Below, one piece after another: positions 1 to 64,000 of a stretch of DNA of 64,000 nt. Source of the DNA: a virus; IMG/VR virus record IMGVR_UViG_3300040801_002379, positions 1-64,000 of that record; one strand, 5' to 3'. The first letter of the stretch is position 1; each line of letters starts with the position of its first letter. Position numbers and translations under genes: made by a program. A model generated the notes under the pieces. It saw only the letters and a list, made by a program, of their open reading frames with translations, had not been told where the DNA came from and did no database searches.

Positions 1-1919
1 ACCATGGTCGCCCGCGTCCTGGTCAGAGTATCCACCCGCGTCCCAAAGCCACTGAAGCCACCACTGTTACGATTCGACACGAGAGTAGACCAGTCCGTCC
101 CGACCGCACCCCATCGAGAAAACGTGACCACACCGAAGCTCGGAGGCACCTGAAACAGCGTCAAGAACTCAGCTTCATTCCCTGCCTGCCTACTCAAGCT
201 GGCTCCAGTCAGGAGCAGCAGCCCGTCCCTTTGCCGCGTCACGTCAGCCGTAGCTCCAGGACCCCTGGACAACGGGAAGTCTCCAACCACCGACTCGATG
301 CGATTCACGACGTCCCCGAAGCCAGGCGTGGAGCCGCTGCCGTCCGCCGCCGTGTTCATGGTGCTGGGGTCGAAGACGTTCCAGAACGCCTGGAGCGTCG
401 AGATGTCGGTTGGTTTGAAGCGGGCGGCCGGTGAGGTCCATGACCCGAACTGCACCACCTCCTCGTCGGTCACCACACGGTCGAGGGTGATGACCTGCCG
501 TAGCGTGCCCTCGAAGATGCTGTTGGACGGCGAGCGACCACCTAGCTCGACACCCTGCTCAGCATCGGCCGAGGACGGAAAGTAGGTGGCCCCAGAGCCG
601 GTCTGGAGGACATTGTTGACCCAAAGGTCGACCGTGGCATCGTCCTTCAAATTGACGGCGATGGCGAAGCCTTCTCCAGCGGGGAGAGGCGCGTCGGCGT
701 CCAGAATCAGGTTGGTCACGCCGTCAGACTGAAAGACGCGAGGCGTGCCGCTCACGAGCTGCACCAGAACACCCACTTGACCGCCAGCATCGAGCGTCGA
801 GAACAGGCGCTCGGATGAAGGAAAGACGTCAGGCGCAGTGCCGGAAATCAGGACAGAGCCTCCATCTCCCGAGTGGAGGGCCTTGGCGGCGGTGGGGTCG
901 GAGCCTTCGAAGGTGCGTCCGTTGAAGGTGACGCCATCGACCGTCCACGTCGGAGAGGCCGTGGCCTGCGTGAGGTCTTCGGTGCCGGTCTTGTCCCGCC
1001 ACAATTCCACCCTGTCGTTGGGGTACGGGAAGCCGGCGCCGCCGAGGGTGTCGAGGTCGAACTGAAGAACGTCCTCGCCATCCCACCATCCGATGGAGGA
1101 CTCGGCCACTGAATCGAATACTGAAAGCGCTGGAGACTCGAACGCCGAGAACCCGCTTATGTCGTCCGTCGTCGCGGGCCGGTTGAGGTAGATGCATTCG
1201 GCAATCTCGCCAAGGAACGGATTGGTGCTCGTCCCTGAACCTCCCCCCAACGAGAACGGAGTCACTGGCGGGTCGGTGACGTAGGCATCACCAAGAGGGT
1301 AGAACTCCTCCTCGCCGTTCAGCCAGATGCTTCCACCTGTAGGTCCAACACTGATGACAGCTTCGACCCACCCATCCGCGACGGTTACCGTCCGGGAGCT
1401 TTGTCCGTTGACCTGAATACCGCCTGTCCCATCGTTGATGAAGAAGTCGAGCGTGTTATTGTTATCGAGCCAGCAAACGAACCGAACCTTGGGCGTGGCC
1501 TCACCTCCACCTGCTTGGTAGTTGGCGAAGAGAACTTGTCGGACCCCGTCGACCCTCTTCTTGAAGCGAAGGAAAATCGACCCTGAACCACGCCCAATGG
1601 CGTTGAGCGCATTGTCAGCATTCTCGAACTCGTTTCCGCCATTGGCCGAGAAGTCGACGCCGGTTGGCTGGAATAGCAGGGATGGCGAGGCCGTAGCGAG
1701 GTCGTACCCGTTGGCGCTCTTGTCGCGCCAGAGGTCGACCGCGTCGCCTGAATACGGGAAGTCGGTCGTGCCGTCCTTCTGGAACTGCAAGACGTCTCGA
1801 CCGTCCCACCATGCGATGACGTCCGCGTCAGAGACGCCGGGCCAAAGAGGTCCACCAGCGCGTCGTGCGAGCCGCTGATTGCGCGGCCGGAACCAGGGCT
1901 CTGGACGAGGCTGGCGCAT
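1..1919 (-). CDS. structural protein with three tandem LamG/concanavalin-A-like lectin-type repeats (3' end outside window)
   Basis: The ATG at 1919-1917 lies 3 nt after the upstream stop (1925-1923). The frame stays open to position 1, which is why it is absent from the complete-ORF track. There are three ~210-aa repeats, the first two opening with ..WWDG(R/E)DVLQF..FPY..V(D/E)LWRDK.. and the third more diverged (..LQAFWNVFDPS..). Composition is Gly/Thr/Asn-rich and beta-type. Confidence 0.55.
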   Translation of the reverse strand, partial: MRQPRPEPWFRPRNQRLARRAGGPLWPGVSDADVIAWWDGRDVLQFQKDGTTDFPYSGDAVDLWRDKSANGYDLATASPSLLFQPTGVDFSANGGNEFENADNALNAIGRGSGSIFLRFKKRVDGVRQVLFANYQAGGGEATPKVRFVCWLDNNNTLDFFINDGTGGIQVNGQSSRTVTVADGWVEAVISVGPTGGSIWLNGEEEFYPLGDAYVTDPPVTPFSLGGGSGTSTNPFLGEIAECIYLNRPATTDDISGFSAFESPALSVFDSVAESSIGWWDGEDVLQFDLDTLGGAGFPYPNDRVELWRDKTGTEDLTQATASPTWTVDGVTFNGRTFEGSDPTAAKALHSGDGGSVLISGTAPDVFPSSERLFSTLDAGGQVGVLVQLVSGTPRVFQSDGVTNLILDADAPLPAGEGFAIAVNLKDDATVDLWVNNVLQTGSGATYFPSSADAEQGVELGGRSPSNSIFEGTLRQVITLDRVVTDEEVVQFGSWTSPAARFKPTDISTLQAFWNVFDPSTMNTAADGSGSTPGFGDVVNRIESVVGDFPLSRGPGATADVTRQRDGLLLLTGASLSRQAGNEAEFLTLFQVPPSFGVVTFSRWGAVGTDWSTLVSNRNSGGFSGFGTRVDTLTRTRATM

Positions 1920-1922
1920 GGC

Positions 1923-2267
1923 TCACCGCCGGCTGTAGAAGACGATGGTGACGGGTGCGTTGCCGCTCGTACTTTTCACGTAGATGGGACCACGAGTCTT
2001 CTCGCCCCGTTCGTTGCCGACCACGTAGGGCCATAGCTCGGCGGGGCCTTCGAAGTAGTCCCCGACCGAACCCGTGGCGACCAGCTCGACGTAATTCTCA
2101 TCCGCGGTCGCATCGTCCTCGTCGAAGTAGAAGCGAACGGGTGAGGTGTGCCCGTTGAAGACCTGAATGTAGAACGTCGGCTCCGTCGGGAAGATGGCCT
2201 CTGCGGCGGCGTCGCCCACGGTCTCTCGCCGAATGTACGGTGCTCCTTGTGCTCTGCCGCCTGCCAT
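1923..2267 (-). CDS. hypothetical protein (head-module, 114 aa)
   Basis: Complete ORF with normal composition. Its start overlaps the stop of the upstream gene at 2267. Confidence 0.55.
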   Translation of the reverse strand: MAGGRAQGAPYIRRETVGDAAAEAIFPTEPTFYIQVFNGHTSPVRFYFDEDDATADENYVELVATGSVGDYFEGPAELWPYVVGNERGEKTRGPIYVKSTSGNAPVTIVFYSRR

Positions 2268-2775: not shown

Positions 2776-4248
2776 TCAGAAGGACCCGGAGGCCCGACCG
2801 ATGTTCTTCATCAGCAGAATCTTGCCCGGCGTGTACAGTACGGGAACCCCGTACACGAGCTGCATCCACCGGATGCTCGTGTCCACCGTGGCCAGGGGAA
2901 TCTTGACCATCGGTGCGAGCTGCTTGAACGACACCGCCTCCAGGTTCATCTGGAAGAGGATGGCGTAGGTGGTGCCCGGAAGCTCCGCGTTGGCGTCCAC
3001 GAAGGTCGTGGTGCCCGAGGAGTCCCGACGAACCCGGCCGATGAGCCGCTCGGTCCCGAGCGCGCCGCTGGCCTCGGTCCGGAAGACCTCGTAGTAGCGG
3101 GGCGTCGGAGCGCCAGCACCGTCGGTGATGGTCACCGTGACGAGGTTGTTCACCGCCGTCACCGTGGCCGCCGCCGCGTTGGCCACCTTGGCGGACTTGC
3201 CGCCGAAGCCGACCGCCACGACCGAGTAGTTGTAGGTCCCCGCCTCGGCCGCGGTGAACGTGGTGTTGCCATCACGTCGCGCCTTGGTCGGAGTCCCCGT
3301 GGTGCCGGCCACCGCCGCCACCGCCGACGGGGCCGGCGGCGGGTTCGAGCCACGGGCCTGCGTCGGAGCGATGCGACCGGGCTGGATGAAGGTGTCCGGC
3401 TCGAAGGCGACGTTGCCCGCGGGGGAAACGTAGCCACCGATGTCCAGACCCACCAGACCGTCGTCCCGCTTCTGGAGCAGGTCGTACCGAGCCTTGGGGA
3501 AGAAGCTCTTCACCAGGTCGGCATGGTTCCGCGGGTTGAGGAAGAGGTGCGTCGGCGTGCCGTAGTTGGGCGCGTCGTGGACGATGAGGGACGAATCGAT
3601 GAGATTGTCCTCGGTGATGGGCGCACCGCGGAGGTCGAGGATGTTCGAGTCCGGCGAACCGGACCCGCCCGTCGAAGGACCTTCCTCGATGAGCTTCACG
3701 AAGCCGTCCCACTGCACGGGGTCGACGGCCGCGTCCCCGAGGAACAGCGACTGCTCGACCGCGCGAAGCAGGTGCATCGTGCCGTTGACCGTCTCCTGCG
3801 CGACCACGTTGCCGTGAGCGGGGCGAACGAGGCTCATCACGTGAGTGACGCGCCGCGTGGTGCCCATGTACTTCACGACGTTGAAGTTGCGCTCGTACTC
3901 AGCATCGGTCTCGGACGGCAGAGCGCCCTCCTCGATGAACGAGTCGAGGTCCTCACCGTACGACTGAATCTGGTTGTACTCCTCGACCGTGTTGTAGGCC
4001 TGGAGCTTGGGAAGGGCCTTGAACAGCCGGATGTGCTCCATCCGGAACGTGACGTTCCGAAGGGTGCGCTCCAGCGACTCGACCCGCAGCGCGAAGCCGT
4101 CGCCAGCGACGACGTTCGCGGGAGGGTTGATGTCCTGCCCCGCAGAGAGGGCCTTGAGCAGGTTGCTCAGGTCCTCTTCGTTGGCGCTCCCGAAGCCGTT
4201 GATGCCCTCGTGGTCACGCCAGGTGATGATGTTCTGTCCACCGTACAT
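2776..4248 (-). CDS. major capsid protein (HK97-fold type) with Ala/Gly/Thr-rich surface insertion
   Basis: 490 aa, in the canonical protease-scaffold-MCP order. The N-terminal segment ..ESLERTLRNVTF..LPKLQAYNTVEEYNQIQSYG.. resembles capsid families. An SD-like GAAAGGAAAC precedes the ATG. Confidence 0.75.
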   Translation of the reverse strand: MYGGQNIITWRDHEGINGFGSANEEDLSNLLKALSAGQDINPPANVVAGDGFALRVESLERTLRNVTFRMEHIRLFKALPKLQAYNTVEEYNQIQSYGEDLDSFIEEGALPSETDAEYERNFNVVKYMGTTRRVTHVMSLVRPAHGNVVAQETVNGTMHLLRAVEQSLFLGDAAVDPVQWDGFVKLIEEGPSTGGSGSPDSNILDLRGAPITEDNLIDSSLIVHDAPNYGTPTHLFLNPRNHADLVKSFFPKARYDLLQKRDDGLVGLDIGGYVSPAGNVAFEPDTFIQPGRIAPTQARGSNPPPAPSAVAAVAGTTGTPTKARRDGNTTFTAAEAGTYNYSVVAVGFGGKSAKVANAAAATVTAVNNLVTVTITDGAGAPTPRYYEVFRTEASGALGTERLIGRVRRDSSGTTTFVDANAELPGTTYAILFQMNLEAVSFKQLAPMVKIPLATVDTSIRWMQLVYGVPVLYTPGKILLMKNIGRASGSF

Positions 4249-9700: not shown

Positions 9701-12700
9701 CATTTGGCGGCGTCATCTTGATAGACCTTCTTGGTGCCCTGGAGGCTCGCGATGTCGTACAAGAGGTCGGCGGTCTTCGTGATGTCGACGGCCCCAACAT
9801 CGTCCGACCATCCTGCCATCGAGAACTTCGCGCCTACAGGAAGCTGGGAGAAGAAGGTGTTGAGGAACTCAAGCTGGAACGCCTTGCCGTCAAGGACCTC
9901 GGTCGGAGGCGTAACCTCAATCCAGGTCGGGTAGGCTTCGGGGTCGGTCGCTACCGGTGTGTCTTTCTGGATTGTGGCGAGGTAGCCCTTCGTGTCCTCG
10001 AAGGTGGCACCATCGGTGACCAATGCGAGCGTGGAGAACTGCTCGAAAATCTGCTTCGCTTTCCCAACGTCCTGATGCGCCTCCTGGTCGATGACGGCAC
10101 CAGTGTTTTTATCGATGACCCGGTACGTGCTCGTGTTGAAGTTGAAGGTGTAGACGTTGTCCATGAAGTCTGCGGCCAACGTCTTCGCTTCACCCATGTG
10201 GGTACTCCAGAAGCCCCAATTATTGACCTGCATCTCAGATACGGTCTCGAAGTCTTCTGACGCGAAGTCGGAAGGCTTGGCCTCGACGATGATGATGCCG
10301 TCCTCCTTCTTGCCCGCGTACTTGATGAGCGAGGCCAGAGACCAAGTGGTTATCTCTTTCGGTTGCAGCTCTGTTGGGCCTGTGACCTCCCACTTCCCGT
10401 TGGGCTTCGCGATGGCATCGATGGCGTAGTTGAAGAAGGTGTCGACGCCGACACTGACATGCGTACCCTCATCAAGGTCATTGAGGAAGTTGAGCTGGCC
10501 AAAGACGCTTCCGTCTGCTGCGTCGATTGCGTCGAATGCGTACTTGGCCCACGGCCCATCCACGCCGAGAGGCTTCACGCCAGCATACTGGCCCGAGGAG
10601 CCGAAGTCTTTGTCCTCCTGTGAAACAGGAGGTGGAGCCGTCGGTAGCGCCACCTCCCAGGTGTCGCCCGTCATGCCCCCAGAAAGGCCCGGTGCTCCGA
10701 AGACGCTGCCAGTAATCGCACTCTCCCACGTACCGTTTTCGAGCTTCTTGAACTTGGACGTTTCCTCCCCCTCCCCGTAGGTGATGGTGGTGCCTGAAGG
10801 ATAGGCGTCCAGCATCTCCGTGACCGCAGCCTCATCCTCGGGGAAGGTGACTTGACCCTCGGGCATGGTCTCGAAGTTGTTCTCCGATACAGACCCCAGA
10901 CCCTTGAGTTGGGCGACGGCATTGGGGCTGATGATGGTCGCCCCGGTGAGGATGTTATCGAGCGTAGTGACGTGAGCTTGGCCGCCGGTTGCGTCGTTGG
11001 TCACCTTCCATCCCGTGCTCACCTTCTTGGCCGTGCGCGCGGTCCCGTTCAGGATGAACTTGAAGCTGTCCAGCTTCGCTAGGAACTCCTTCTGGTCCGC
11101 GTTCAAGTCAGCGAACTCGACGGTCTCCAGACCTGGAGTCCCCGCCTCAGGCGCCGGGATGTGGACCGCTATCGCATTGAAGGGCGGTTCCATGGCCAGC
11201 TTCTCGATAAACTCGTCTTGGAAGAGCAAAGTCGTAGAGGTTCGCCACTTTGGTCCGGACGGTGTATCCTGCTTCTTGAACTCCTCGCCGTTGAAGAAGA
11301 TGATGGAGCCCTGCGGGAGCCCTTCTAGGTAATCGTCGTCTGCCACCTCCTCGATGGTGAGCTTCTCAGGGAGCTTCTGCTCGTACGCCATCACGGCGTT
11401 CGAGATGACGTTGTGGGCCTGCGTATCGGACAGCGGGAGTCCGATTTTGGAGCCACCTGTCGTCATCTGCCACTTGTTGGCGGCGACCTTCGCCAGGTAG
11501 TAGCCCGGTTCGCCAGAGTAGACGCCACCGACGGGCGTATTCTTCACCTCGCTCAGGCTGAGGTTCTTGTTCGGCTTGGGCTCCTCTTCACCCGAGGGAC
11601 CAGAAGACTCGGGCATCGTCTCGAAGTTATCCTCGCTCGGCTTCAGACCCCAGAACTTCCAACCGCCACCCGACGGGACCTTCGACTTGCCGGTCTTCGC
11701 CTTGTAGTCTTCGACGTTCTCGTAGCCCTTCTGGACAACCCACACGAAGTCCGAGGCTGCGCTCAGGCTGTCGAAGGCGTGCCACATGTCGGCGCCAGGG
11801 AGCTGAACGTTGAAGCCATCTGCCTGCGCGTTGAGCTTCACGGGCAGCTTCTTGGCCGCGTGCGTGAACTTCTTCTTGACCGTGACGGTCGTGAACTCGG
11901 GCAGCGGGCTATTAGAGACCTTCGGTGCGTCGACGGGCTTCTTCACCGTCGAGCTTCCATCCCCCGTAGCCTGGAGCGGGGGGCCACTCGTGACCTCGAC
12001 CGCCTGCTTCTCGATGGGCGAGCCCTTGAAGATGCTCGCGGCTGCGTCGAACTGCGAGCCCAGATTCCCCTTCTCGTTGTCGATGGGCCAGGCGATGTAG
12101 CTCGGATTGCCGAACATGTTCGAGTAGCTGACGCCGAACACCTTCTCGCCACCGTTATCCCAGATGACGATTTGGGAACCGAGAGCTGTCGCTACCTCCT
12201 GGACCTTCGTGGGGACGATGGACATGTCAGAAACGACGCCGTCGCCGTGGTCCAGAACCATCTCCAGAAGGCTCTTCATCTTCGGGGGAGGTGTGATGGT
12301 GCCGGTAGGCTTCAGCGAGTCGCCGAATTCCTTCAGCTTCAGCATCTTCGTCGCGCTGTAGCTGATGCCCTTCTTCTTCTTCTCGGCCGCGGTCATGTCG
12401 AGGTCGAGGCCGTTGGTCCAGAGGTACAGCGAGTCGCATGCCGCGTTGGGACTCGTGAACTCCTTCATGGTGCCATCGGGGTACGTGACCCGCACCATCC
12501 CCGAGGGCATGAAGAAGATGTTGAACTTCTTCTTCTTGTAGGTGACGTCGGCGTCGAAGCCGACACCAGGGTAGTTGGCCCCGAACGACTTCACCGGGCC
12601 GCCTGGATTGATGAGCGTGGCCGTGCCCTTCTTCACCGGAATGAACGCGCCTGTAGGACCGAGCGCGTCCTTCTTGTCCTTCTCCGCTTCCAGCTTCTCC

Positions 12701-25400: not shown

Positions 25401-25470
25401 GCTCACCAATGGCACGGTCGTGAGGTTGACATGGGTGCAGGGTTCTGGCCAGGGCTGGGCTTGGCGGGAA

Positions 25471-28650: not shown

Positions 28651-28691
28651 GGGTGGCTCCTTTCCGGAGGGAGCCTCCTCCCTCCATCTGT

Positions 28692-28743
28692 ATAGTCGCA
28701 TGGACCCTCCAGAATGTAAAGCAGAAAAACTCAGTTTTCTGGA
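28692..28743 (-). promoter_or_regulatory. conserved phage promoter (family member 1)
   Basis: Minus-strand read: TCCAGAAAACTGAGTTTTTCTGC-TTTACA-TTCTGGAGGGTCCATGC(17)-GACTAT. Confidence 0.6.
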
Positions 28744-28747
28744 CTAG

Positions 28748-29488: not shown

Positions 29489-29494
29489 ACCTAG

Positions 29495-29545
29495 ATACTA
29501 CGGCACACCAGGGCAGATGTAAAGCAGAAAAACTCACTTTCTGGA
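29495..29545 (-). promoter_or_regulatory. conserved phage promoter (family member 2)
   Basis: TCCAGAAAGTGAGTTTTTCTGC-TTTACA-N17-TAGTAT-CTAGGTG. Confidence 0.65.
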
Positions 29546-30140: not shown

Positions 30141-30145
30141 CCCTT

Positions 30146-30460: not shown

Positions 30461-30496
30461 GCTTCCTCCCGGGGAGCAACCGCTCCCCTCATCTTC

Positions 30497-30546
30497 ATCA
30501 TAGCAGGACCGTCCAGAGTGTCAAGCAGAAAAATGCACTTTCTGGA
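30497..30546 (-). promoter_or_regulatory. conserved phage promoter (family member 3, TTGACA/TATGAT class)
   Basis: TCCAGAAAGTGCATTTTTCTGC-TTGACA-N16-TATGAT-GAAGATG. Confidence 0.65.
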
Positions 30547-31216: not shown

Positions 31217-31266
31217 ATCATAGCACCATGCGGGGCAGTGTCAACCAGAAAAACTCACTTTCTGGA
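31217..31266 (-). promoter_or_regulatory. conserved phage promoter (family member 4, TTGACA/TATGAT class)
   Basis: TCCAGAAAGTGAGTTTTTCTGG-TTGACA-N16-TATGAT-GAAGATG. Confidence 0.65.
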
Positions 31267-31389: not shown

Positions 31390-31390
31390 G

Positions 31391-32110: not shown

Positions 32111-32161
32111 ATACTACGGCCACCCGTCCAGAATGTAAAGCAGAAAAACTCACTTTCTGGA
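32111..32161 (-). promoter_or_regulatory. conserved phage promoter (family member 5)
   Basis: TCCAGAAAGTGAGTTTTTCTGC-TTTACA-TTCTGGACGGGTGGCCG(17)-TAGTAT-CTAGGTG. Confidence 0.65.
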
Positions 32162-32745: not shown

Positions 32746-32796
32746 ACACTACGGCACCCCGGTCCAGATGTAAAGCAGAAAAACTCAGTTTCTGGA
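32746..32796 (-). promoter_or_regulatory. conserved phage promoter (family member 6)
   Basis: TCCAGAAACTGAGTTTTTCTGC-TTTACA-N17-TAGTGT-ATAGGTG. Confidence 0.6.
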
Positions 32797-37003: not shown

Positions 37004-37053
37004 TTGTACGCGGGTTAGTCCAGACTGTCAAGCAAGAAAACGCACAATCTGGA
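37004..37053 (-). promoter_or_regulatory. conserved phage promoter (diverged family member 7)
   Basis: TCCAGATTGTGCGTTTTCTTGC-TTGACA-N16-TACAAG. Confidence 0.45.
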
Positions 37054-38985
37054 TTAACAAGCACGGTGGGCCCACCGCAAAGCGAATGCATCCCGCATCA
37101 GGTCGGTCTGAAACCGGTCGTCTTCGAGCCCCACGTCCCACAACGTCGCCCCCTGGTCGGCCAAGGGCAGGAGCCAGGCGTCAGGTCGGGCCACCCGGAT
37201 GCGAGTGATACCGAACGCCTGGCAGGCCCGGGCGACGTCCACGTCGGCCATCCCAGGATGCACCAGGAAGGCCTCGAACGTCTCCACGGGCTCGATGGCT
37301 TCCCGGGGGATGCAGAGGGTGCCAGTACCGAGAACGTCCGTCTTGCCCTCTTCTGCGGCGTCAGAGAAGTGATAGGGTATCTTCTCCCTCAGGAAGCTCT
37401 CGAACGGTCGGTCCGGGAGGTCTGAGGCGTGGACTCCGATGAGCGCGGACGGCCAGCGTCGGGCGGTCTCGGCCAGCTTCTGGACGTAGTCGCTCGGGTA
37501 GAGGATGTCGTCGTCGAGGGTGAAGAACAGGTCCCACCCCGACTCACCCAGCCCGATGAACTTCCCGATGTCCTTCCAGAGATTCTGGACAGGCTTCGGG
37601 GTGTGAATCTTCGGATGGTTCCGGACCCACTCGGGTAGCTCGTCGGGCTCGTAGTCGTCGCAGTGAATGGTCAGCCGGTCGACCTGAGGCAGGATGCTGT
37701 TGAGCACGGATTCGAGCTGGGGCAGGCGCCGCTTGATGGTCGCCATGCCCGCATGAACGGTCTCAGGGACCCCGCGATTGAGGAAGCCCTCGATGTACTC
37801 GGCCATGGGCGAGCCGGCCGCGACGGCCTTCTGGAGCGCGAGGACGCCTTCGTCGTCCATGCCCAGGGCGGCGAACGCCTTCGCCTGGTTCGTGTACAGC
37901 TCCCACACCTGGTAGGGCAGGAAGCTCGTCTCGTTGGCCTCGGCCTCGGGGATGAGCTTCTCGGCCTGCTCGAACGCCCCCTTGGCCGCCTCGGCCTCGC
38001 CCGCGTTGAGCATGGCGCAGCCGGCCTCGTACCAGAGGTCTGGACTCTTGGGGAACAGCTTGAGCGCTTGGATGGCCTCGTCTCGAATCTCCGTCGGAGG
38101 TCGAGGGACCTCGCCCATGGCCTGGAGCAGGTACAGCCAGGACCCTTGGGCTCGGTTCAGCTCGTGGCCTCCCTTGTCCAGAAACCACGCGATGCTCTCC
38201 TTGAGGGTCGCGATGGCTCGGTCGAGCTGGCCGAGCTGCACTTGGGCTCGGCCCAGGTAGTAGAGGTTCAGGCCGTCCCGCCGTTCCGCTAAGGCCTTCT
38301 GGAGCAACCGCGCGGTGCGCTCGTGCTTGCGCTTCTCCTTCACGACGTCCGGGGCGTAGCCCTTGTGTAGAAGCCGGAGCTGGTCCGAGGTGAAGGTCAG
38401 CAGGCCCACGCCAAGGCCCTCCAGCTCGTCCCTGAGGACCAAACGGTTGTGGATGGGGCTCTCGTACCGGATGCCCGGATGGCGCGGATACAGGCGCACG
38501 TGATGACTCAGGGACAGCCTCTCGTCGGTCTTGGGGTCGATGTCGAAGAGCGGGAGCTTGCCGAAGAGCCGGGGCCAGAGGTCCGGGCTCTCGGCCTCGA
38601 AGGCCCTCAGCTCGGCCTTGAGCCGGCCGGGCTCGGCCATGGTGCCTTCGAGGTGCTCGTCGCAGTCGATGCTGAGAATCCAGCGTCCGGTCGCATGGCG
38701 GGCGGCCTCGTTCCGGGCGGCTGAGAAGTCGTCGCACCACTCGAAATGCGCCGTGCGGACGAAAGGGGCCGCGTTGTGCGCATGGGCGTGGACGATGGAC
38801 ATGGTGTTGTCGGAGGAGCCGGTGTCCAGAAAGACGATTTCATCGACCACGCCAGCCAGCGAATCGATGCAGCGTCCTACGAACCGCTCCTCGTCCCGGC
38901 CCATGATGACCGCGGAGAGGAAGGGGGTGGCGTCCCGTGCGGGACGAGGAATGGAAGGCATGTGGGGGCTATCCTTCATGGGCAT
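37054..38985 (-). CDS. family-2 glycosyltransferase - TPR repeats - second glycosyltransferase-like domain
   Basis: 643 aa. The N-terminus has VIMGRDEE..LDTGSSDNT..DDFSAARNEA..SIDCDEHL (GT-A/DxD). The central region has TPR-like repeats. The C-terminal region has ..FFTLDDDILYP... Confidence 0.8.
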   Translation of the reverse strand: MPMKDSPHMPSIPRPARDATPFLSAVIMGRDEERFVGRCIDSLAGVVDEIVFLDTGSSDNTMSIVHAHAHNAAPFVRTAHFEWCDDFSAARNEAARHATGRWILSIDCDEHLEGTMAEPGRLKAELRAFEAESPDLWPRLFGKLPLFDIDPKTDERLSLSHHVRLYPRHPGIRYESPIHNRLVLRDELEGLGVGLLTFTSDQLRLLHKGYAPDVVKEKRKHERTARLLQKALAERRDGLNLYYLGRAQVQLGQLDRAIATLKESIAWFLDKGGHELNRAQGSWLYLLQAMGEVPRPPTEIRDEAIQALKLFPKSPDLWYEAGCAMLNAGEAEAAKGAFEQAEKLIPEAEANETSFLPYQVWELYTNQAKAFAALGMDDEGVLALQKAVAAGSPMAEYIEGFLNRGVPETVHAGMATIKRRLPQLESVLNSILPQVDRLTIHCDDYEPDELPEWVRNHPKIHTPKPVQNLWKDIGKFIGLGESGWDLFFTLDDDILYPSDYVQKLAETARRWPSALIGVHASDLPDRPFESFLREKIPYHFSDAAEEGKTDVLGTGTLCIPREAIEPVETFEAFLVHPGMADVDVARACQAFGITRIRVARPDAWLLPLADQGATLWDVGLEDDRFQTDLMRDAFALRWAHRAC

Positions 38986-45756: not shown

Positions 45757-45970
45757 GCAGTCCTCCCGTCCAGATTTCCGTGTCCAGACTGTAAAGCAGT
45801 AAAACTCACCTCGATGAGGCAAGGTCAGCATGACGGGATGGACTGAGGAAGAGGAGGAGCCAGGCTCGACGGATGTCGCTCGGCTTCAAGTTGTCACGGT
45901 ACGACCCCGGGGAAGGGCCGTCAGGATGTCCCCCTGGTCGGGTTTCTAAACCATCGGTTCAGGTCCGTGG

Positions 45971-54305: not shown

Positions 54306-54338
54306 GTTCTGTTCCCTTTCCCGCCGAGATGGCGTCCC

Positions 54339-54389
54339 AGGATGGCCCATCTCGTCCAGAATGTAAAGCAGAAAAGCTCACATTCTGGA
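54339..54389 (-). promoter_or_regulatory. conserved phage promoter element (family member 9; weak -10)
   Basis: TCCAGAATGTGAGCTTTTCTGC-TTTACA-TTCTGGACGAGATGGGC(17)-CATCCT. Confidence 0.45.
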
Positions 54390-54441: not shown

Positions 54442-54864
54442 TCAGTCGTACTCGTCGATGCGGATGTCTCGACCACGTAGCGCGTACAGCTTCGCCTGAG
54501 ACGCGACCGTGTTGCTCTCGTGCTGATTCACGATGAGGACGTCCTCCAGGCGCGCAGAGATGGCCAGACCGGCCTCAATGCCCAGCTTCCGCTCCTCGGC
54601 GGTGTCTTCGTCCAGGATGCCGTGAAGCGGGTAGAGCGCGTGGGAGGCCCAAGGGGCCCGGCCGCAAAGCAGCTCATCCCGCATGGCCTGGCGGACGATG
54701 CGGATGTTCCGCCACCGCCACGGCGGAGGGATGCGGTCGGGGCACCCGATGAGGAACAAGAAGCCGTTGAGGACCTGGAGAAGGGGCCAGGTCAGGTGGT
54801 CGTGCCACCTCATCCTTCCGCGGTAAGGGCTCTCGATGACGACGGTCTTCACAAGGCTCTCCAT
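54442..54864 (-). CDS. hypothetical protein
   Basis: 140 aa from ATG 54864 (MESLVKTVVIESPYRG..). Confidence 0.45.
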   Translation of the reverse strand: MESLVKTVVIESPYRGRMRWHDHLTWPLLQVLNGFLFLIGCPDRIPPPWRWRNIRIVRQAMRDELLCGRAPWASHALYPLHGILDEDTAEERKLGIEAGLAISARLEDVLIVNQHESNTVASQAKLYALRGRDIRIDEYD

Positions 54865-56402
54865 TCCCCATCGATGACGCTGATGAGGCTGCGCTTCCCG
54901 TTGGCGTAGACCACGCAATGCGTGTTCATCCAGCTCGACGGGATGTTGTTGTAGTATTGGTCCAGACGTCCAGTGACGCCGACGACGTAGCACCCCTCGA
55001 TGATTTCTGGACTGTGGTAGTGGCCGATGATGGCCTTCACGCCCAGCTTCGAGTACGCCAATGAGCTTCCCTTCGAACCGTTGAGCCCGATGTCGCCGTG
55101 GAAGTTGAGGAAGATGTCGCCCACCTTTCGCGGCGTGTCTCGGTCCAGAAACTCGGCCCTCTTCTGGTCTGAGAAGACGTCATAGAGTACGCGGAATGCG
55201 GGGGTCCAGAAACCATCTCGGCGGCGTCGGCGGAGCACTTCGGCCCAGGCCTCGTGGTAGAACAGCGCGTTCTTCGGGTCGTTCTGCCAATCGGAATTAC
55301 GAAGCCACCAGTCCAACATCTCGTCATGGTTCGACTGGACGACGACCGGACTGCACCACTCCGGAATGCGCTGGTCCAGAAATGCGATGGCCCGCATGAC
55401 CTCGGGCTGTACCTCACTGTGGAAGTCCGCTCGGTCCGCCATTCGGCAATCGTACCGAGTATCGAAGTCCTTCAGCGTGTGCCGGTTGAAGTTGCCCATG
55501 TGGAGGAGGTCGTGGACGATGGCCTCTCGGGGCTGGAGCGTCTCCATGATGGAGTCCTCGCCCTCGAACGTGGCCGCGATGACCTCGGGGTCGCTGAGCC
55601 CCTCATGGACGTCTCCGAAGACGATGGCCCGCGCGGGCTCGGCCTCGTACACGCCCTCGGGTGTGTACTCCTTGTCGAGGTCGATGAACGTCCCGTCGCT
55701 GACGGCGTTGATTTGGCGGATGTGGAAGAGGTTCGTGCCCTTCTCGACGACCGCAGCCCCGAAGACGTGGTGAGCCTCGCCCTTCTTCCCCGCCTTGCTG
55801 TCGGTGTAGTTGCGCACCGTGACCGCGCCGGTCGTGGACAGGATGCGAGGGTACTTGCGCTTGGCCGTCGGCACGGTCTTGAACTGGATTTTGGGGTGGC
55901 CGAAGATGGCCGAAGCCTGTCCAGAAAACACCTCGAAGCCAGTCAGAGGACGAACGGCCGTGGGCTGGATGGAGATGTCACCGTAGATGGTCAGGTGGTC
56001 GCCGATGCGGCGGCGGCCGGCGAAGAGATACGGGACGACCTCTTTCGCCCACCAGTCATCCTGCATGGCCTTCGCGGACCACGTGCTGGTCGGGTTCTTG
56101 TACCGGCCTGGAAGGACGAGGAGCACTGCATCGTTGAACTCGCAGAACCTCTTCAGGCTCTCCAGAAAGGCCTTGTTCACCGGGGTCGCGTTCTGAGCGT
56201 AGGTGATGACGTAGGTCTCTCCGTAAGGTGCCTTCTTCGGGAGCGGGTTTCGTGTGATGGTCGTTCGAGGACTACCCTGGCGGCGGGCTGCGTTGAAGCA
56301 GGCGCGGCACTTCCGGCGTCGCGTATTACCATCCTTCGGGAACTCTTCTTCTGGTTTGGCTGCGCCGCATTCGACGCACTCTCGGTAGGGTGTACGGGCC
56401 AT
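54849..56402 (-). CDS. calcineurin-like metallophosphoesterase with N-terminal zinc ribbon (possible nuclease)
   Basis: 517 aa with CVEC..CRAC, then GDVHEG, SNHDE and GHYH metallophosphatase motifs. Confidence 0.7.
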   Translation of the reverse strand: MARTPYRECVECGAAKPEEEFPKDGNTRRRKCRACFNAARRQGSPRTTITRNPLPKKAPYGETYVITYAQNATPVNKAFLESLKRFCEFNDAVLLVLPGRYKNPTSTWSAKAMQDDWWAKEVVPYLFAGRRRIGDHLTIYGDISIQPTAVRPLTGFEVFSGQASAIFGHPKIQFKTVPTAKRKYPRILSTTGAVTVRNYTDSKAGKKGEAHHVFGAAVVEKGTNLFHIRQINAVSDGTFIDLDKEYTPEGVYEAEPARAIVFGDVHEGLSDPEVIAATFEGEDSIMETLQPREAIVHDLLHMGNFNRHTLKDFDTRYDCRMADRADFHSEVQPEVMRAIAFLDQRIPEWCSPVVVQSNHDEMLDWWLRNSDWQNDPKNALFYHEAWAEVLRRRRRDGFWTPAFRVLYDVFSDQKRAEFLDRDTPRKVGDIFLNFHGDIGLNGSKGSSLAYSKLGVKAIIGHYHSPEIIEGCYVVGVTGRLDQYYNNIPSSWMNTHCVVYANGKRSLISVIDGEWRAL

Positions 56403-56403: not shown

Positions 56404-56883
56404 CTAAACCTCCAGCTTCTGGACGTACTCGACGCCAGACTCGGTGAGACGGAGCCCGGTGGGCTCCATCAGCTTGAACGCTACGAGACGATGGACTGGA
56501 CGATGAACGTCGACGTCGAAGACGTCAGAGACGTCAGAGACAGGAGGATTGTGGCCTCGGCCGTTCTCGACCTGCACGTACTGGAGTATCTCATCCTCGG
56601 TGACGGTAGGACCAAGGTCATCGGGGACCGCCGCGGCCGAATCCAGAAGGAACGTCACCGGGACCTCAAGGGCCTTGGCCAAGAGGGTGAGCTGAGGAAG
56701 ACGGGGGAGCCGGCGGCCATTGGCCCAAGCACTGATGGTGCTCGGGGTGACGCCGACTCGGGCTGCGAGGTCGACCTTGGTCGACCGACAATGTCGAAGC
56801 GCTGTCGCGAAGCGGTCCGGAAAGACGGCCTTCAGCCGCCCTAGCTCGGCTTGCTCTCGCCCAGCGTATCCTCCTCCAGGCAT
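56404..56883 (-). CDS. XRE/Cro-CI-type helix-turn-helix transcriptional regulator
   Basis: Motif STKVDLAARVGVTPSTISAWANGRRLP..LLAKALEV. Confidence 0.75.
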   Translation of the reverse strand: MPGGGYAGREQAELGRLKAVFPDRFATALRHCRSTKVDLAARVGVTPSTISAWANGRRLPRLPQLTLLAKALEVPVTFLLDSAAAVPDDLGPTVTEDEILQYVQVENGRGHNPPVSDVSDVFDVDVHRPVHRLVAFKLMEPTGLRLTESGVEYVQKLEV

Positions 56884-58307: not shown

Positions 58308-58519
58308 TTTCTTCCCTTCTGGATGGCTGAGACGAGGTCGGACAGCGCTTTGTCCGTGTCGATGACCTCCTCCACTCGTGCCCATCCGCACGAATCACAC
58401 TTCGTTGCGTTCACGACCTTGTGGGCCTTTCGGCCCTCAGTCTGCTCGGTAGCCGGACCCCACACGTCCCTGAGCTGCCGGCCGCAGACAGGGCAGGACT
58501 CAGACAGGGTGACGTTCAT
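58304..58519 (-). CDS. small zinc-ribbon protein
   Basis: 71 aa from ATG 58519 (ATGA coupling), with CPVC...CDSC. Confidence 0.5.
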   Translation of the reverse strand: MNVTLSESCPVCGRQLRDVWGPATEQTEGRKAHKVVNATKCDSCGWARVEEVIDTDKALSDLVSAIQKGRK

Positions 58520-58842
58520 AGGTACTTCCGAATGACCTGATGAACGGCGGAACGCGACACTCCGAACTCCCGAGCAATTTCCGCCTGCGAGGTCGTCGGA
58601 GCCAGCGCCACAATGGCGTCGATGTCTTCCGCAGTGAGCCGCTTCGGACTCCGAGTCGGCCCAGACGACCGAGTCGGGAAGCCCCAATGCTTCCAGAGCC
58701 GGGCCAGAGTGTTCACACTGGTGTCGAGACGTTCGGCGACCTCTCGAAGCGTCAAAACCTCGAACCAGTACATGCGCCACGCCTGAAGCGCAGAGGTGGT
58801 CATCGATGCTCTCATAGTAGCCTCCAACCCTTCAGGGTCCAC
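58516..58842 (-). CDS. DNA-binding protein with two HTH motifs
   Basis: HTH motifs LTLREVAERLDTSVNTLARLW and SQAEIAREFGVSRSAVHQVIRK. Confidence 0.6.
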   Translation of the reverse strand: MDPEGLEATMRASMTTSALQAWRMYWFEVLTLREVAERLDTSVNTLARLWKHWGFPTRSSGPTRSPKRLTAEDIDAIVALAPTTSQAEIAREFGVSRSAVHQVIRKYL

Positions 58843-59401: not shown

Positions 59402-59449
59402 GTCAGTGCTCCTTGGTTCATGCGGAGGCTGTCCATCAGCCTCGTCCAG

Positions 59450-59497
59450 AATGTAGCCCCGAAAGTCCAGAACGTCAAGCAGAAAAACTCAGATTCC
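59450..59497 (-). promoter_or_regulatory. conserved phage promoter (family member 10)
   Basis: ..CTGAGTTTTTCTGC-TTGACG-TTCTGGACTTTCGGGGC(17)-TACATT. The amidase stop TGA lies inside the upstream element. Confidence 0.6.
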
Positions 59498-60112: not shown

Positions 60113-61152
60113 GATGCCTCCAGAAGGGGAAATATGAATTCGTGCATGTCCTCATCCAACAAACGAAGCGGGCTATGGGCCTGAGCGGGCTGCCAGCGAA
60201 GGGTGATGGTCGATGAGGTCCATGTCTTCGTCGAGGTCGAGAGTCGCTCACCGTGGACGAGAAAATCCAGCGGAGTGCTCGACGGGTGTGTCACTTCTAG
60301 ATGGGCCTCGATGTCGGGGGCCGTCAAACTGCTGACATTGAGGAAAGCACCCTCTGTCCAGAGTCGTAGGAACCGGCGCTGCGCCTTCTGCTTGAAGGCC
60401 TTCATGGCCTCCTGGAAGGCCTTCGTGGGGACAACCAGCTCCCGCCAGGGCTCCGGGGTCGACTCGAAGAAGGCGCCCAGAGGAGGGTACCAGGTCTCCA
60501 CGGTGCGTATCAGCCGGTACTCGCCGTGCGACTGGATGAGGAACCACTCCGGACGAAAGCCCGCCGACGGCTGACTGGACTGGATGACCTTCATCTTCTG
60601 GAACGACCGCGCCGGAACCAGGCCCTCGACCTCGGGGGCGAGGCCACTCCGACACCTCACGAACTGAGCCTCGTCGCCGGCCTCGACCAGTCCAGAAAAG
60701 AACCGCACGCATCCGAGCCCCGGCCGGAGCTGGTCCTTCACCGCGGCACGTTCGGAGACGCCGATGATGTCCTTCAGGTTCTTCACCGTCAGCGTCGAAG
60801 TCTGGAAGTCGAAGGGGCGGTTGGCGTAGGGCCAGTACACGGTGGGGTCGACCAGCGGTGCCATGTTCACGAGCGAGGAGCCGACCTTGAGCTGCATCGG
60901 CGTATTGCCGACGTACTGGACCTCGCAGCTCTTGGTCTTCAGCTTCCGGAACTCGCCAGCCACCTCCTTCACGTCAGCCACGAACCCGACAATCGGTAGC
61001 CCCTCCGTGACGGGGAAGAAGCTCCAGAAGCCCTCCGCTTGGACCGCGACGCCAGGGATGACGTCGGGGGTCGAAGGGATGACGGCGAAGCGGGGGTCGG
61101 TCAGATGGGTTGCGAGAGCCGCTGCTCGGGCTACTGCTTGGTCAAAGCGCAT
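60109..61152 (-). CDS. DNA polymerase sliding-clamp (beta-clamp)-like protein
   Basis: 347 aa of about the right size, beta-rich. Segments ..RPGLGCVRFFSGLVEAGDEAQF.. and the C-terminal ..PLRLLDEDMHEFIFPLL resemble clamp motifs. This is not a strong match. Confidence 0.5.
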   Translation of the reverse strand: MRFDQAVARAAALATHLTDPRFAVIPSTPDVIPGVAVQAEGFWSFFPVTEGLPIVGFVADVKEVAGEFRKLKTKSCEVQYVGNTPMQLKVGSSLVNMAPLVDPTVYWPYANRPFDFQTSTLTVKNLKDIIGVSERAAVKDQLRPGLGCVRFFSGLVEAGDEAQFVRCRSGLAPEVEGLVPARSFQKMKVIQSSQPSAGFRPEWFLIQSHGEYRLIRTVETWYPPLGAFFESTPEPWRELVVPTKAFQEAMKAFKQKAQRRFLRLWTEGAFLNVSSLTAPDIEAHLEVTHPSSTPLDFLVHGERLSTSTKTWTSSTITLRWQPAQAHSPLRLLDEDMHEFIFPLLEAS

Positions 61153-61796
61153 AGGTACTCCAGGTCTTCAATCGTGGGCAGTCTCCCCGCCCGTAAGTTG
61201 ATGAGGGCTCGATGTACCCGGAAGTCCTCCGGGAGCTTCTCGACCCACTCGCGTAGCTGTTCTGCACGATGCGGAACGCCCAGCTTTCTGGAACGTCGAC
61301 GGAACCTCTGAAAGCACGGATTACAGAAACCACCGATGTGATGGGGCCGTGCCTTCGTTCCGCACTGAAGGCAACAATAGGCTTCGAGCTTCTTCGACCA
61401 GTAGTCGTGCCCCAACCAGCATATGATGTCGTCGTACTGCTCGAACGTGATGATGAAGTCGCCGTGCTTCTTGGTCCTGAGCCATCGCTGATTCAAGGCT
61501 CGGGCTGCTCGGAGGAAATGCGTGCGACTGTACCCGCTGACCTTGAGCGCCTCATACAGGCTCATCGAGCCCCGCGTGATGCCGCCGCCACCGAATTCGC
61601 GTTGGACCTTCTTCCAGATGGCGTCCTTCGTTCTGCCCCCGACCTTCTTCTGGAGCACCGACCACCCTACGACACCGATGTTGTCCAGAAGGGCCTTCTT
61701 CTGCTTCTCAGTCCACTCAGAACCCGCCGAAGCCGAAGGGGTCGCGTTCGTCGATGTTCGTGCGCTCTTGGAGCTTCTGGAGCTTCCCATCTTCAA
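61131..61796 (-). CDS. putative DNA-binding protein (Myb-like N-terminal region, Cys-rich C-terminal region)
   Basis: 221 aa with WTEKQKKALLD..W..LQKKV and CCLQCG..CNPC. The start overlaps the upstream ORF and is uncertain. Confidence 0.5.
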   Translation of the reverse strand: MKMGSSRSSKSARTSTNATPSASAGSEWTEKQKKALLDNIGVVGWSVLQKKVGGRTKDAIWKKVQREFGGGGITRGSMSLYEALKVSGYSRTHFLRAARALNQRWLRTKKHGDFIITFEQYDDIICWLGHDYWSKKLEAYCCLQCGTKARPHHIGGFCNPCFQRFRRRSRKLGVPHRAEQLREWVEKLPEDFRVHRALINLRAGRLPTIEDLEYLCALTKQ

Positions 61797-62686: not shown

Positions 62687-63060
62687 CAGTCCTCTCCGTG
62701 GTGGAACTCGCGAATGTAGGCGTCCAGAAACGGACGGAAGTCGGACAGACGCATGAAGACCATGGGCTCACCACGGTTCCGCTTCACGATGACGATGGGC
62801 CGGTCTTCGGGGTCCTTGTCCTGCATGGCCTGAGCGAACTTCGCCCACGGGCTCGGCGCCTTCCCATGGCATAGCTCCCAATGGATGGCCAGACGGCTGC
62901 CCTTCGCGAACGTCTCGACGTCGGCCTCCTCCTTGCCGCCACCTCGGCTCTGCCAGCCCCTCTTCGCGTCACCGTCGAGGTCGAAGAACTGCTCTTTGAA
63001 CCACCGCGCGAACCACCGCTCGAAGGTATGGCCTTTGGTGCGTTGACCCCCGGCCTTCAC
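62686..63060 (-). CDS. Hjc-like PD-(D/E)xK Holliday-junction resolvase / endonuclease
   Basis: Pattern KGHTFERWFARWF...QSRGG...ADVE...LAIHWELCHGK follows the Hjc pattern (G..fER...D...ExK). ATGA-coupled to the SbcC-like gene. Confidence 0.6.
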   Translation of the reverse strand: MKAGGQRTKGHTFERWFARWFKEQFFDLDGDAKRGWQSRGGGKEEADVETFAKGSRLAIHWELCHGKAPSPWAKFAQAMQDKDPEDRPIVIVKRNRGEPMVFMRLSDFRPFLDAYIREFHHGED

Positions 63061-64000
63061 GCCATCAGCTCCTTGCCCATCTCCACGAACATCTCTGGAG
63101 TCAACGGCTTGCCCTTCAGGTCGATGTAGTCAGGAATGGGCTCGTCCGGGAACATCGAACGACGATTCTGGATACGGACCTTGAGCTGTCGTTCGAACTG
63201 GCCCGCCATCTCCTTGTCGTGGTCCACGACGAAGATGCTATCACGGTCCATCGACTGGAGCAGCTCGAAGACCGCCTCACGGCCTCCAGAGTCCATGTGC
63301 TGCCGGAATGACTCGTCGATGATGTAGAGCCCCCAGCTCTTCGAGGCCCGACTGGCCACGAGCTGGGACAGCCCCTGGTCGATGCCCAGGGCCACCCGTT
63401 TCTTCTCGCCGCCGGACCAGCTCCGGTAGCTGCGCTCGGTCGTGGTCCCGTCCGGGTTGTGGCGGAAGATGCGGATGTTGAACTGCTCGTTCAGCTTGCC
63501 CGAACTGGTCATCGACTGCGTCTCGAACCGGACCCAGGTCGTGCCTCCCGTGAGCGCTTGCACCCAGGAGTTGGCCGCGTCGGTCATCAGCTCGATTCGG
63601 GAGTCCAGAATGTAGCTCTTGATGCCCTTGTTGCTGAGCGCCTCGACCCACCACTGCCAGTGATTGAGCAGGGCGAGCTTCTGCTCCGCCTCCTTCTGGC
63701 CGGCCGCGAGTTGCTCCTCGAAGACCTGGATGGAGGTGGCGTTGTCGGGCGCAATCCACTGCTCGGCCTGGATTTGGCTCACCGAATACTGAGCGTTGTC
63801 GACCTGCGTCTGGAGGTACTGGAGGTTCGTCTGCTGGAGCTGGCGAATCTCGGCCTCCAGAACGCCCTTCTGGTGATTGTAGGAGGCCAGAACCCCATCG
63901 TTGTACGCTTTCTCCTGGTCCGCGTAACCGACTGCCTCGCGGTAGTGGGCGTCGGCCTGGTCCAGGCCATGGATGGCCTGGTCTCGGGAGGCTTGAGCTT
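63057..64000 (-). CDS. SbcC/Rad50-like ATPase, C-terminal part (5' end outside window)
   Basis: ABC signature SGGEKKRVAL, Walker B LYIIDES and H-loop VVDHD. The frame stays open upstream of the track start (63782) to the window edge, through a coiled-coil-like sequence. Confidence 0.75.
   Translation of the reverse strand, partial: AQASRDQAIHGLDQADAHYREAVGYADQEKAYNDGVLASYNHQKGVLEAEIRQLQQTNLQYLQTQVDNAQYSVSQIQAEQWIAPDNATSIQVFEEQLAAGQKEAEQKLALLNHWQWWVEALSNKGIKSYILDSRIELMTDAANSWVQALTGGTTWVRFETQSMTSSGKLNEQFNIRIFRHNPDGTTTERSYRSWSGGEKKRVALGIDQGLSQLVASRASKSWGLYIIDESFRQHMDSGGREAVFELLQSMDRDSIFVVDHDKEMAGQFERQLKVRIQNRRSMFPDEPIPDYIDLKGKPLTPEMFVEMGKELMA

Follow-up and report, generated by a model that had tools for sequence, protein, structure and literature searches.

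Hyper-abundant words are a rare feature of genomes; Chi, the DNA uptake sequences, HIP1 and KOPS are examples, each of which gave access to a part of DNA biology. The uptake sequences (DUS in Neisseria, USS in the Pasteurellaceae) are words of 9-12 bp which occur about once per kb, in both orientations, in cellular genomes and are tied to natural competence; to our knowledge nothing equivalent is known for phage DNA. The stoperators of Cluster A mycobacteriophages are 13-14 bp long and number about 20-35 per genome. HIP1 (GCGATCGC), the highly iterated palindrome of cyanobacterial genomes, is over-represented 15-300-fold (PMC5861425, PMC4390886). Chi-rich phages (lambdoid LLS, Pseudomonas MD8) carry at most one site per 2 kb, with 85-100% of the sites in one orientation (PMC12315714, PMC3784561); the Chi sites of LLS are clustered toward the open DNA end, and the Chi-rich phages have no recombination genes of their own (PMC12315714). 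Here the heptamer TCCAGAA (complement TTCTGGA; together the word) is described as a hyper-abundant word of phage DNA, in a stretch of 64,000 nucleotides (the window: positions 1 to 64,000 of IMG/VR virus record IMGVR_UViG_3300040801_002379). Literature searches for the word itself returned nothing relevant, and no description of a phage word this strong.

Abundance of the word and its placement in genes

An exact recount over the window gave 94 copies of TCCAGAA and 109 of TTCTGGA on the plus strand (203 in all), the very numbers that had been estimated by hand in the initial annotation of this DNA, which was made from the sequence alone. At the GC content of the window (62.6%) the order-0 expectation is 4.8-5.3 copies, and the resulting 42-fold enrichment over composition agrees with the figure of about 40-fold given there. 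TCCAGAA is by far the top 7-mer of the window, and the next-ranked 7-mers are extensions of TCCAGAA itself. An order-1 Markov null predicts 9.2 copies and an order-3 null 34.0, the latter model being contaminated in that it already holds sub-words of TCCAGAA. Within genes, where 156 copies were observed in the gene set used for shuffling, permutation of whole codons gave 12.9 ± 3.5 copies (maximum 25), while a synonymous-codon shuffle, which preserves the protein and its codon usage, gave 42.6 ± 4.1 (maximum 53); these correspond to enrichments of 12-fold and 3.7-fold. Codon-preserving shuffling, which the initial annotation had named as one possible refutation, does not therefore reproduce the count. 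The background level, taken from 80 unrelated phage loci (881 kb, those collected around the T5 A1-like gene family described below), amounts to 0.25 copies per kb, no locus having more than 8, compared to 3.17 per kb in the window. It is clear that the hyper-abundance of the word is real and far beyond chance.

The copies are spread over the whole window, as follows.

1..64000, both strands (94 plus, 109 minus): dispersed copies of TCCAGAA, n = 203, mean spacing 314 bp
10213..11728: longest word-free stretch, 1523 bp between the starts at 10206 and 11729, inside a gene for a protein of 2322 amino acids (aa)

The word-free stretch is the one already noticed by eye at about 10.2-11.7 kb, and the five copies first cited as examples are all among the recounted positions. 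The spacing is slightly more regular than random (coefficient of variation 0.84, a value reached or undercut in 0.2% of simulations), and the order of the two orientations along the window is random, as judged from runs of orientation. A profile of the 12 nt on either side of the word holds almost no information, with a slight preference for G/C at -1 and for A/G at +7. One-base variants are frequent, as had been remarked; the position-7 variants TCCAGAC, TCCAGAG and TCCAGAT have 43, 32 and 29 copies where 5-8 are expected, an enrichment of about 5-fold.

A gene call based on the GC content of third codon positions (GC3) places essentially all genes on the minus strand. Relative to these genes the word occurs 109 times in the sense and 94 times in the antisense orientation and is present in every frame, which bears out the early observation that it is not tied to one peptide. 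Since the genes are one-stranded and the orientations nonetheless nearly balanced, the reading of the word is not transcript-directional. Most copies (176 of 203) lie inside genes, yet intergenic DNA, which is free of coding constraint, is the denser of the two (5.35 copies per kb, compared to 2.99 for coding DNA), and the main codon placements, nTC-CAG-AAn (54 copies) and nTT-CTG-GAn (50), are also the cheapest. The poorest large gene is the major capsid gene, whose codon bias is high.

2776..4248, minus strand: major capsid gene, 1 copy in 1473 bp, GC3 0.90

The use of synonymous opportunities was then compared with that expected from codon usage. Of 58 [FLIV]Q[KN] tripeptides, 56 are spelled with the word (32 expected), as are 56 of 79 [FLIV]L[DE] tripeptides (3.1 expected), by a route that requires rare nTT codons; xPE is written as nnT-CCA-GAA in 23 of 96 cases (0.3 expected) and xSG as nnT-TCT-GGA in 19 of 105 (0.2 expected). 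Furthermore, the [FLIV]Q[KN] tripeptides themselves are inflated about 4-fold, with 59 in the proteins against 14.9 ± 3.9 after residues were shuffled. This opportunity test, the codon shuffles, and the turnover of sites at constant density among relatives (see below) demonstrate that selection, or drive, acts on the DNA itself. The claim that the DNA and not the protein is selected is thereby strongly supported, and this selection prevails over codon usage and has altered protein sequences.

The phage clade and its early promoters

A JGI contig of 109,823 bp encodes a protein 100% identical to the terminase of the window, and dozens of terminase homologues lie on contigs of 103-113 kb. The virus is therefore an uncultivated phage of about 110 kb, of which the window makes up about 58%. 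A search of GenBank phages with 20 kb of the window gave no match near identity. The terminase is of the T4 type, and its best cultured relative, from Bacteroides phage DAC16, is only 31% identical; the capsid protein is 35% identical to those of the SPO1/SP-10 type. Loci of relatives (L numbers) were taken around the terminase, SbcC and a replication gene from IMG/VR, GTDB genomes, ENA, NCBI and Logan. A scan of IMG/VR with the capsid protein alone found no relatives, and homologues of the SbcC-like gene fragment of the window (63057-63782) lay only on contigs of at most 10.4 kb, nine of them below 2.3 kb, which were of no use for gene context.

The window and three of these loci form one clade of large terminase subunits (TerL) in which TCCAGAA is the top 7-mer, at 2.7-4.2 copies per kb and over a range of GC content from 0.49 to 0.66.

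L001, 16 kb, GC 0.66: 44 copies of TCCAGAA (1.0 expected)
L011, 22 kb, GC 0.61: 92 copies (1.8 expected)
L002, 22 kb, GC 0.49: 74 copies (2.7 expected)

Further carriers of TCCAGAA are L410 (37 copies, 3.3 expected), L411 (70 copies, 2.3 expected), L106, L186, L202 and L380, of which L106 and L380 came from IMG/VR pattern scans for three clustered copies; these scans mostly gave tandem coding repeats. Three words are hyper-abundant in a sister clade: TTCCAGA(A) in L012, L036, L020 and L190; TCCGGAA, often as the palindrome TTCCGGAA, in L042/L188 and L028/L192, which are two regions each of two contigs, the second regions showing the same word; and TCCAGAC in L030 and L034. Members without a comparable word fall between these lineages, and no such word was found in the more distant terminase clades. 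Synonymous shuffles were again used as the reference.

L042, TCCGGAA: 85 observed, 9.6 in the synonymous shuffle
L030, TCCAGAC: 48 observed, 7.9 in the shuffle
L036, TTCCAGA: 42 observed, 5.9 in the shuffle
L011, TCCAGAA: 90 observed, 24.4 in the shuffle

Over such shuffles the sister-clade words are enriched 5-9-fold in the loci tested, and TCCAGAA 4-7-fold in its other carriers. When sites of the window were compared at homologous positions, 10 of 33 were matched in L001, 7 of 37 in L011 and 2 of 15 in L002; the density is maintained across relatives and the positions are not. The hyper-abundant word is a conserved and evolving trait of a phage clade, with one-base switches of the word in sister lineages.

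One gene of the window serves as a control for this turnover.

54849..56402, minus strand: T5 A1-like 'DNA transfer protein' (phrog_1745, E = 4e-145), 3.9 word copies per kb

Its family comprises more than 2000 representative clusters, mostly from unrelated phages, and none of the 80 loci collected around it belongs to the clade or carries the word. The gene appears to have been acquired horizontally, because its closest homologues are in unrelated phages without the word, and the imported gene has already taken on the normal word density. As a determinant of the word it was rejected, the family being spread over unrelated wordless phages.

Abundant words were also seen elsewhere. Low-GC (0.30-0.37) IMG/VR contigs, namely L069 (1-7024), L344, L351 and L084, showed no similarity to any sampled locus of the clade, and L069 encodes a terminase and a portal of its own. 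TCCAGAA ranks first among their 7-mers in either orientation; the enrichment is only 2-5-fold above synonymous shuffles, and the contigs were chosen by the search pattern itself and are hence biased. L306 (1-13422; GC 0.46), likewise without similarity to the sampled clade loci, has 27 copies of TCCGGAA against 7.5 in the synonymous shuffle and is also enriched for words containing CTGCAG, so that several words are hyper-abundant in it. L058 (1-13911), a distant terminase relative of GC 0.71, has about 27 copies of a longer repeat with ACTCCGCC, CCGACTCC or AGTCGGCG. The palindromes CTCGAG and GAGCTC are 7-10-fold above composition in several GC-rich relatives (L011, L183, L015), CTCGAG being enriched besides TCCAGAA in L011 (1-21803). 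They were not retained as true words; in the loci tested, L015 and L183, their excess over synonymous shuffles is no more than about 2.7-fold, and codon usage may account for most of it. GGAGACAA in L044 and L045 was discounted as a ribosome-binding site with its start context.

The word also recurs at fixed places in promoters. The gene strand carries nine copies of a 19-nt element, TGAGTTTTTCTGCTTTACA, and one more that has diverged. It is a promoter of the sigma-70 type, consisting of a T-tract, TTTACA or TTGACA, a spacer of 16-17 nt and TAGTAT or TATGAT; four copies pass a promoter consensus scan where 0.5 would be expected. The copies precede small, probably early genes. TCCAGA(A) lies at a fixed site about 20 nt upstream of the -35 hexamer in seven of the nine copies, and (T)TCTGGA begins at most one base after the -35 hexamer in seven of the nine, so that the word flanks the -35 box as first described. 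In its full form the arrangement is an inverted pair, TCCAGAA-N21-TTCTGGA, around the T-tract and the -35 hexamer.

28708..28743, minus strand: TCCAGAA, 21 nt (T-tract and TTTACA), TTCTGGA
29495..29545, minus strand: TTTACA-17-TAGTAT, upstream TCCAGAA, -35-adjacent site decayed
30497..30546, minus strand: TTGACA-16-TATGAT with TG extension, upstream TCCAGAA, cTCTGGA after the -35
31217..31266, minus strand: TTGACA-16-TATGAT, upstream TCCAGAA only
32111..32161, minus strand: both exact arms, TCCAGAA-N21-TTCTGGA, around TTTACA; -10 is TAGTAT
32762..32796, minus strand: upstream TCCAGAA, TCTGGA directly after TTTACA
37012..37058 (approximate), minus strand: tenth, more diverged copy, ATCCAGAT ... 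TTGACA-GTCTGGA
45783..45808, minus strand: TTTACA-GTCTGGA, no upstream copy of the word
54355..54389, minus strand: both exact arms, upstream of the ADP-ribosylglycohydrolase gene
59445..59491, minus strand: TTGACG-TTCTGGA, with a second TTCTGGA 14 nt further

Similar arrangements were found in relatives: TTGACT-TTCTGGA four times in L011; TTGACA-N4-TCCAGAA-N11-TTCTGGA as well as TTGACA-TTCTGGA in L002; and, in the TCCGGAA-type locus L042, a T-tract followed by TTGACT-TCCGGAA, i.e. its own variant of the word at the same place in the promoter. This juxtaposition of word and promoter, recurring in four genomes, points to a reader that also comes into contact with RNA polymerase.

The region 28400-33000 is a cluster of small genes, each with its own conserved promoter copy, and GC-rich hairpins are present in 5' leaders after the promoters, for example GGAGGGAGGAGGCTCCCTCC after the copy at 28715. 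At 28993-29307 an early operon encodes a basic protein of 104 aa (pI 10.1) with an Ala/Lys-rich, histone-H1-like N-terminal tail, which is conserved in the word-carrying loci L001 and L020. In the TCCAGAC-type phages L030 (1411-1470, 2685-2745, 5243-5300) and L034 (2057, 4762, 6605) the promoters have a palindrome, AGACA(A/T)ATGTCT, fused to TTGACA, which takes the place of the genome-wide word.

Other genes of the window include those for a portal protein, PHP phosphoesterase, ThyX, deoxynucleoside monophosphate (dNMP) kinase, class II ribonucleotide reductase, patatin, amidase, ADP-ribosylglycohydrolase, a GT2-TPR glycosyltransferase, several helix-turn-helix (HTH) proteins and two giant virion-type proteins. 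One of these two, of 1615 aa (14002-18849) and also present in L001, L410 and L411, contains an intein (Hint/Intein_splicing), an inorganic-pyrophosphatase domain, DUF5661 and a zeta-toxin/AAA_33 kinase domain; its neighbour of 747 aa (23343-25586) has a second zeta-toxin kinase domain. In relatives, a replication and recombination module lies next door, with SF2 and DnaB-like helicases, a DnaG-type primase (L202:7988-9163 in a TCCAGAA-type relative), PolA, an SSB-like protein and a clamp-like protein, and RecA, SbcD, SbcC and RuvC are also encoded there. No Rfam family was found in the window; a tRNA-Lys(CTT) called by ARAGORN at 26000-26080 (plus strand), antisense within the terminase gene, is probably a false positive. 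Bins of metagenome-assembled genomes that contain relatives are labelled Gemmatimonadota (twice), Latescibacterota (twice) and Deltaproteobacteria, which is only a hint at the hosts.

Possible readers and roles of the word

Some lineage-specific system probably reads the phage DNA through this word. It is tentatively proposed that TCCAGAA is the recognition word of a lineage-specific, sequence-specific DNA-binding factor, acting both at the early promoters and genome-wide; such a factor would most probably be phage-encoded. We infer that the reader is a protein and that the phage encodes it, and likewise what its binding would do. Early transcription would come under the control of this factor through the copies that occupy fixed positions in some ten early promoters of the sigma-70 type. 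Elsewhere the single copies, about three per kb and on either strand, would bring it onto the phage DNA over its whole length, where it might mark or coat the DNA as 'self', through compaction, protection or the recruitment of replication or packaging functions. Such a genome-wide role would demand density, not particular positions. The specificity of the factor would have drifted by single bases in the sister lineages, each genome being rewritten to follow. The occurrence of the same word across a GC range of 0.49-0.66 fits a phage-borne reader more easily than a host-borne one. The role of a protein-binding site, one of several put forward in the initial annotation, gains from the fixed promoter positions and from the L042 variant at the same position, which favour it and do not prove it.

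It is possible, though on balance doubtful, that the clade uses a private 'self word', by which an evolvable, phage-encoded reader tells the phage's own DNA from that of the host without base modification. If so, the word could spare phage DNA from the phage's own host-DNA-degrading nucleases, it could coat or organise the DNA, or it could direct the replication, transcription or packaging machinery, and reader and genome would co-evolve whenever the word shifts by one base. A phage-encoded reader would provide a virus with a modification-free way to mark its own DNA, by means of short tags with a matched binding protein. The chance that this is a new, modification-free self-marking system is substantial, while well below even.

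The one-base swaps of the word in sister lineages are a natural experiment for finding the reader by covariation. The following proteins were considered.

56404..56883, minus strand: Cro/C1-type HTH protein of 159 aa, directly upstream of the T5 A1-like gene, candidate reader
58516..58842, minus strand: basic protein of 108 aa with two HTH units (sigma-70 region 4/HTH_23-like), candidate reader of an asymmetric site
61131..61796, minus strand: Myb/SANT-like and zinc-ribbon protein, in every clade member sampled

The last of these, named among the HTH candidates in the initial annotation, is unlikely to be the reader; aligned between genomes of different word classes, it keeps the same putative recognition helices, and it probably binds something else. 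The first two, together with several small basic early proteins, are the remaining candidates. The PHP phosphoesterase (27464-28486) and the ADP-ribosylglycohydrolase (53274-54350) were found only in TCCAGA-type genomes and were absent from the sampled TCCGGAA and TCCAGAC regions; they are not readers of DNA and were dropped.

Several points weigh against the proposed binding factor. No reader of TCCAGAA has been identified: the clade-wide DNA-binding protein at 61131-61796 does not covary with the word, and the HTH proteins at 56404-56883 and 58516-58842, like the several small basic early proteins, were not traceable in the sampled relatives. The coating or self-marking role is purely inferred. 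A transcription factor alone does not need about 350 sites per genome (extrapolated from the density in the window), and it would be titrated by the surplus. Since the promoter copies of any one genome are paralogues, their fixed positions are partly inherited, and the covariation of the promoter with the word rests on the single L042 site. The weaker enrichment in unrelated low-GC contigs could point to a cause on the side of the host. Finally, the copies show a polarity of orientation that would not be expected of a binding site wholly blind to orientation. Sense copies prevail in the late genes downstream of the terminase (43 against 24 in window positions 1-24 kb, 30 against 11 in L011, 13 against 4 in L410), whereas the early regions of L011 and L410 have mostly antisense copies (17 against 5 and 17 against 3); the early region of the window (28000-64000) is balanced. 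Codon cost could account for the sense bias of the late genes, but not for the early antisense bias.

Alternatively, the word could be the target of a covalent modification (methylation or hypermodification) made after replication, in which case a dense word would spread a protective mark and the marks in promoters would tune timing. Asymmetric words of 6-7 bp and one-base switches between relatives are typical of the evolution of target recognition by methyltransferases, and the asymmetric 7-mer with its one-base switches resembles this. Orphan methyltransferases are linked to HIP1 (PMC4390886), which is the closest analogue in phenotype. A GT2 glycosyltransferase and a dNMP kinase are among the products of the window, and methyltransferases are present in members of the clade.

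L186, 11534-12808: C5 methyltransferase (also in L030 and L034)
L188, 16703-17347, and L192, 17154-18059: N6A methyltransferases
L002, 1891-2559: N4/N6 methyltransferase, a type also found in genomes with other words or none

These are, however, three unrelated families, distributed without relation to the class of word and with none common to all carriers, and the window lacks a counterpart at the positions syntenic to the C5 gene. A scan of approximately 50 window proteins turned up no methyltransferase and no other enzyme that modifies bases, about 46 kb of the genome lying outside the window. The gene content thus lends no support to the modification or nicking target that was first suggested, and a modified word is considered unlikely.

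A host Chi-like signal, another of the early suggestions, is attractive in principle but fits poorly and is quite improbable. In that case RecBCD or AddAB of the host would turn the degradation of incoming or replicating linear phage DNA into RecA loading, and both orientations would be needed since headful packaging leaves ends anywhere; the even spacing in both orientations would suit such ends, with which a T4-type terminase is compatible. Chi sites are asymmetric words of 5-8 nt that differ by few bases between related hosts, Chi-enriched phages exist (PMC12315714, PMC3784561), and the weak enrichment in a few unrelated viral contigs could reflect common hosts. Yet the sites described here, at 94/109 by orientation and spread evenly at one per 315 bp, are unlike those of the oriented and sparse Chi-rich phages; the latter have no recombination genes (PMC12315714), whereas this clade encodes its own RecA, SbcCD and RuvC. 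Nor would an identical word be expected in phages of GC 0.49-0.66, whose hosts are unlikely to be close, and the fixed promoter positions would be left unexplained.

The conserved module of the clade (DnaG-type primase, DnaB-like helicase, PolA, clamp-like protein, SSB and RecA) brings to mind a replication signal, namely a site for the primase or for another priming or nicking initiator, which would have to recur at intervals of a few hundred bases on either strand to serve lagging-strand synthesis during recombination-driven replication. One site per about 630 nt per strand is on the scale of Okazaki fragments, symmetric orientation and regular spacing would be expected, and the specificity of a primase zinc domain can drift. 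Against this, the characterised DnaG and T7-type primases read trinucleotides, which does not fit a 7-mer; L184, L194 and L195 share the replication module and yet have no comparable word or a weak one; and the promoter positions are again unexplained. Such a signal is therefore distinctly improbable.

Very little probability is given to the binding of a host factor (a nucleoid protein, a regulator or a defence sensor) which the phage would hijack or titrate as its DNA multiplies. The promoters are of the host sigma-70 type and the word sits where host factors act; it also shows a weak enrichment in some low-GC contigs that are unrelated to the clade and have a terminase and portal of their own, but only 2-5-fold over synonymous shuffles and in contigs chosen by the search pattern. 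Strong enrichment was seen only in the one phage clade, the 80 unrelated loci and the outgroup terminase clades being without it, and the one-base switches track the phylogeny of the phages. Were the word read by the host after all, it would reveal a recombination or nucleoid signal of poorly studied hosts.

Least credible of all is a word without function, produced by mutational or gene-conversion drive (very-short-patch-type repair, or biased heteroduplex repair between co-infecting genomes): recombination genes abound in the clade, neighbours of the word with one mismatch show a moderate enrichment, as for sites arising or decaying, and uptake sequences as well as HIP1 (PMC4390886) have been discussed as products of drive, but a patch-repair bias acts at one position and should raise a 7-mer few-fold, and pure mutational drive cannot plausibly give a 40-fold enrichment, reshaped amino-acid sequences, a spacing more regular than random and fixed promoter positions in several genomes.

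Comparison with known systems

The target of a restriction-modification or BREX-type system would be a word that the phage avoids; here the word is 40-fold enriched, which is the opposite. The uptake sequences too are scattered in genes in the least costly frames and have one-base dialects in related lineages, and DUS and USS are read by a specific DNA-binding protein. With the Chi-enriched phages this clade has in common a short asymmetric word enriched by selection on the DNA; the word is, however, 6-fold denser, symmetric in orientation and evenly spread, in phages that encode RecA, SbcCD and RuvC.

The likeness to HIP1 is considerable. Each is a short exact word, placed in genes irrespective of frame, more than 15-fold enriched and maintained by selection while the sites turn over; each has quasi-regular spacing and variants in related lineages, and the function of HIP1 has long been obscure. 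HIP1 differs in being a palindromic octamer of cellular chromosomes with two orphan methyltransferases, whereas TCCAGAA is an asymmetric 7-mer of a lytic-looking phage clade, has copies in early promoters and, as far as the incomplete genomes go, has no methyltransferase common to its carriers; only the TCCGGAA lineage often extends its word to a palindrome, TTCCGGAA.

In layout the operator/stoperator system of Cluster A mycobacteriophages resembles this one, with an asymmetric site that is read there by a phage protein, one copy at an early promoter and many scattered copies (PMC9283540, PMC6550527). The sequence of the site differs between related phages, in that system together with the specificity of the reader (PMC9283540, PMC6550527). 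At the early promoters the present word abuts the -35 hexamer in seven of nine copies, and does likewise in L011, L002 and L042. Stoperators are, however, mostly intergenic, oriented with transcription and found in temperate phages, whereas the word has 7 bp, some 3 copies per kb, 176 of 203 copies in genes and both orientations (109 sense, 94 antisense). HTH proteins are present in the window, but no repressor linked to the word and no integrase was seen there, about 46 kb of the genome lying outside it.

In phage SPO1 with TF1, and in phi29 with p6 (PMC10899789), one abundant phage protein covers the genome and also switches early promoters or turns them off, which is the effect proposed here, and the capsid protein of the clade is distantly SPO1-like. 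No homologue of p6 or TF1 was detected here, and neither protein uses a hyper-abundant exact word; p6 reads the shape or bendability of DNA and TF1 reads hydroxymethyluracil DNA. Because it fails defining features of each system, the word is a member of none of them; it is closest to the operator/stoperator in layout, to phi29 p6 in effect, and to HIP1 as a genomic phenomenon.

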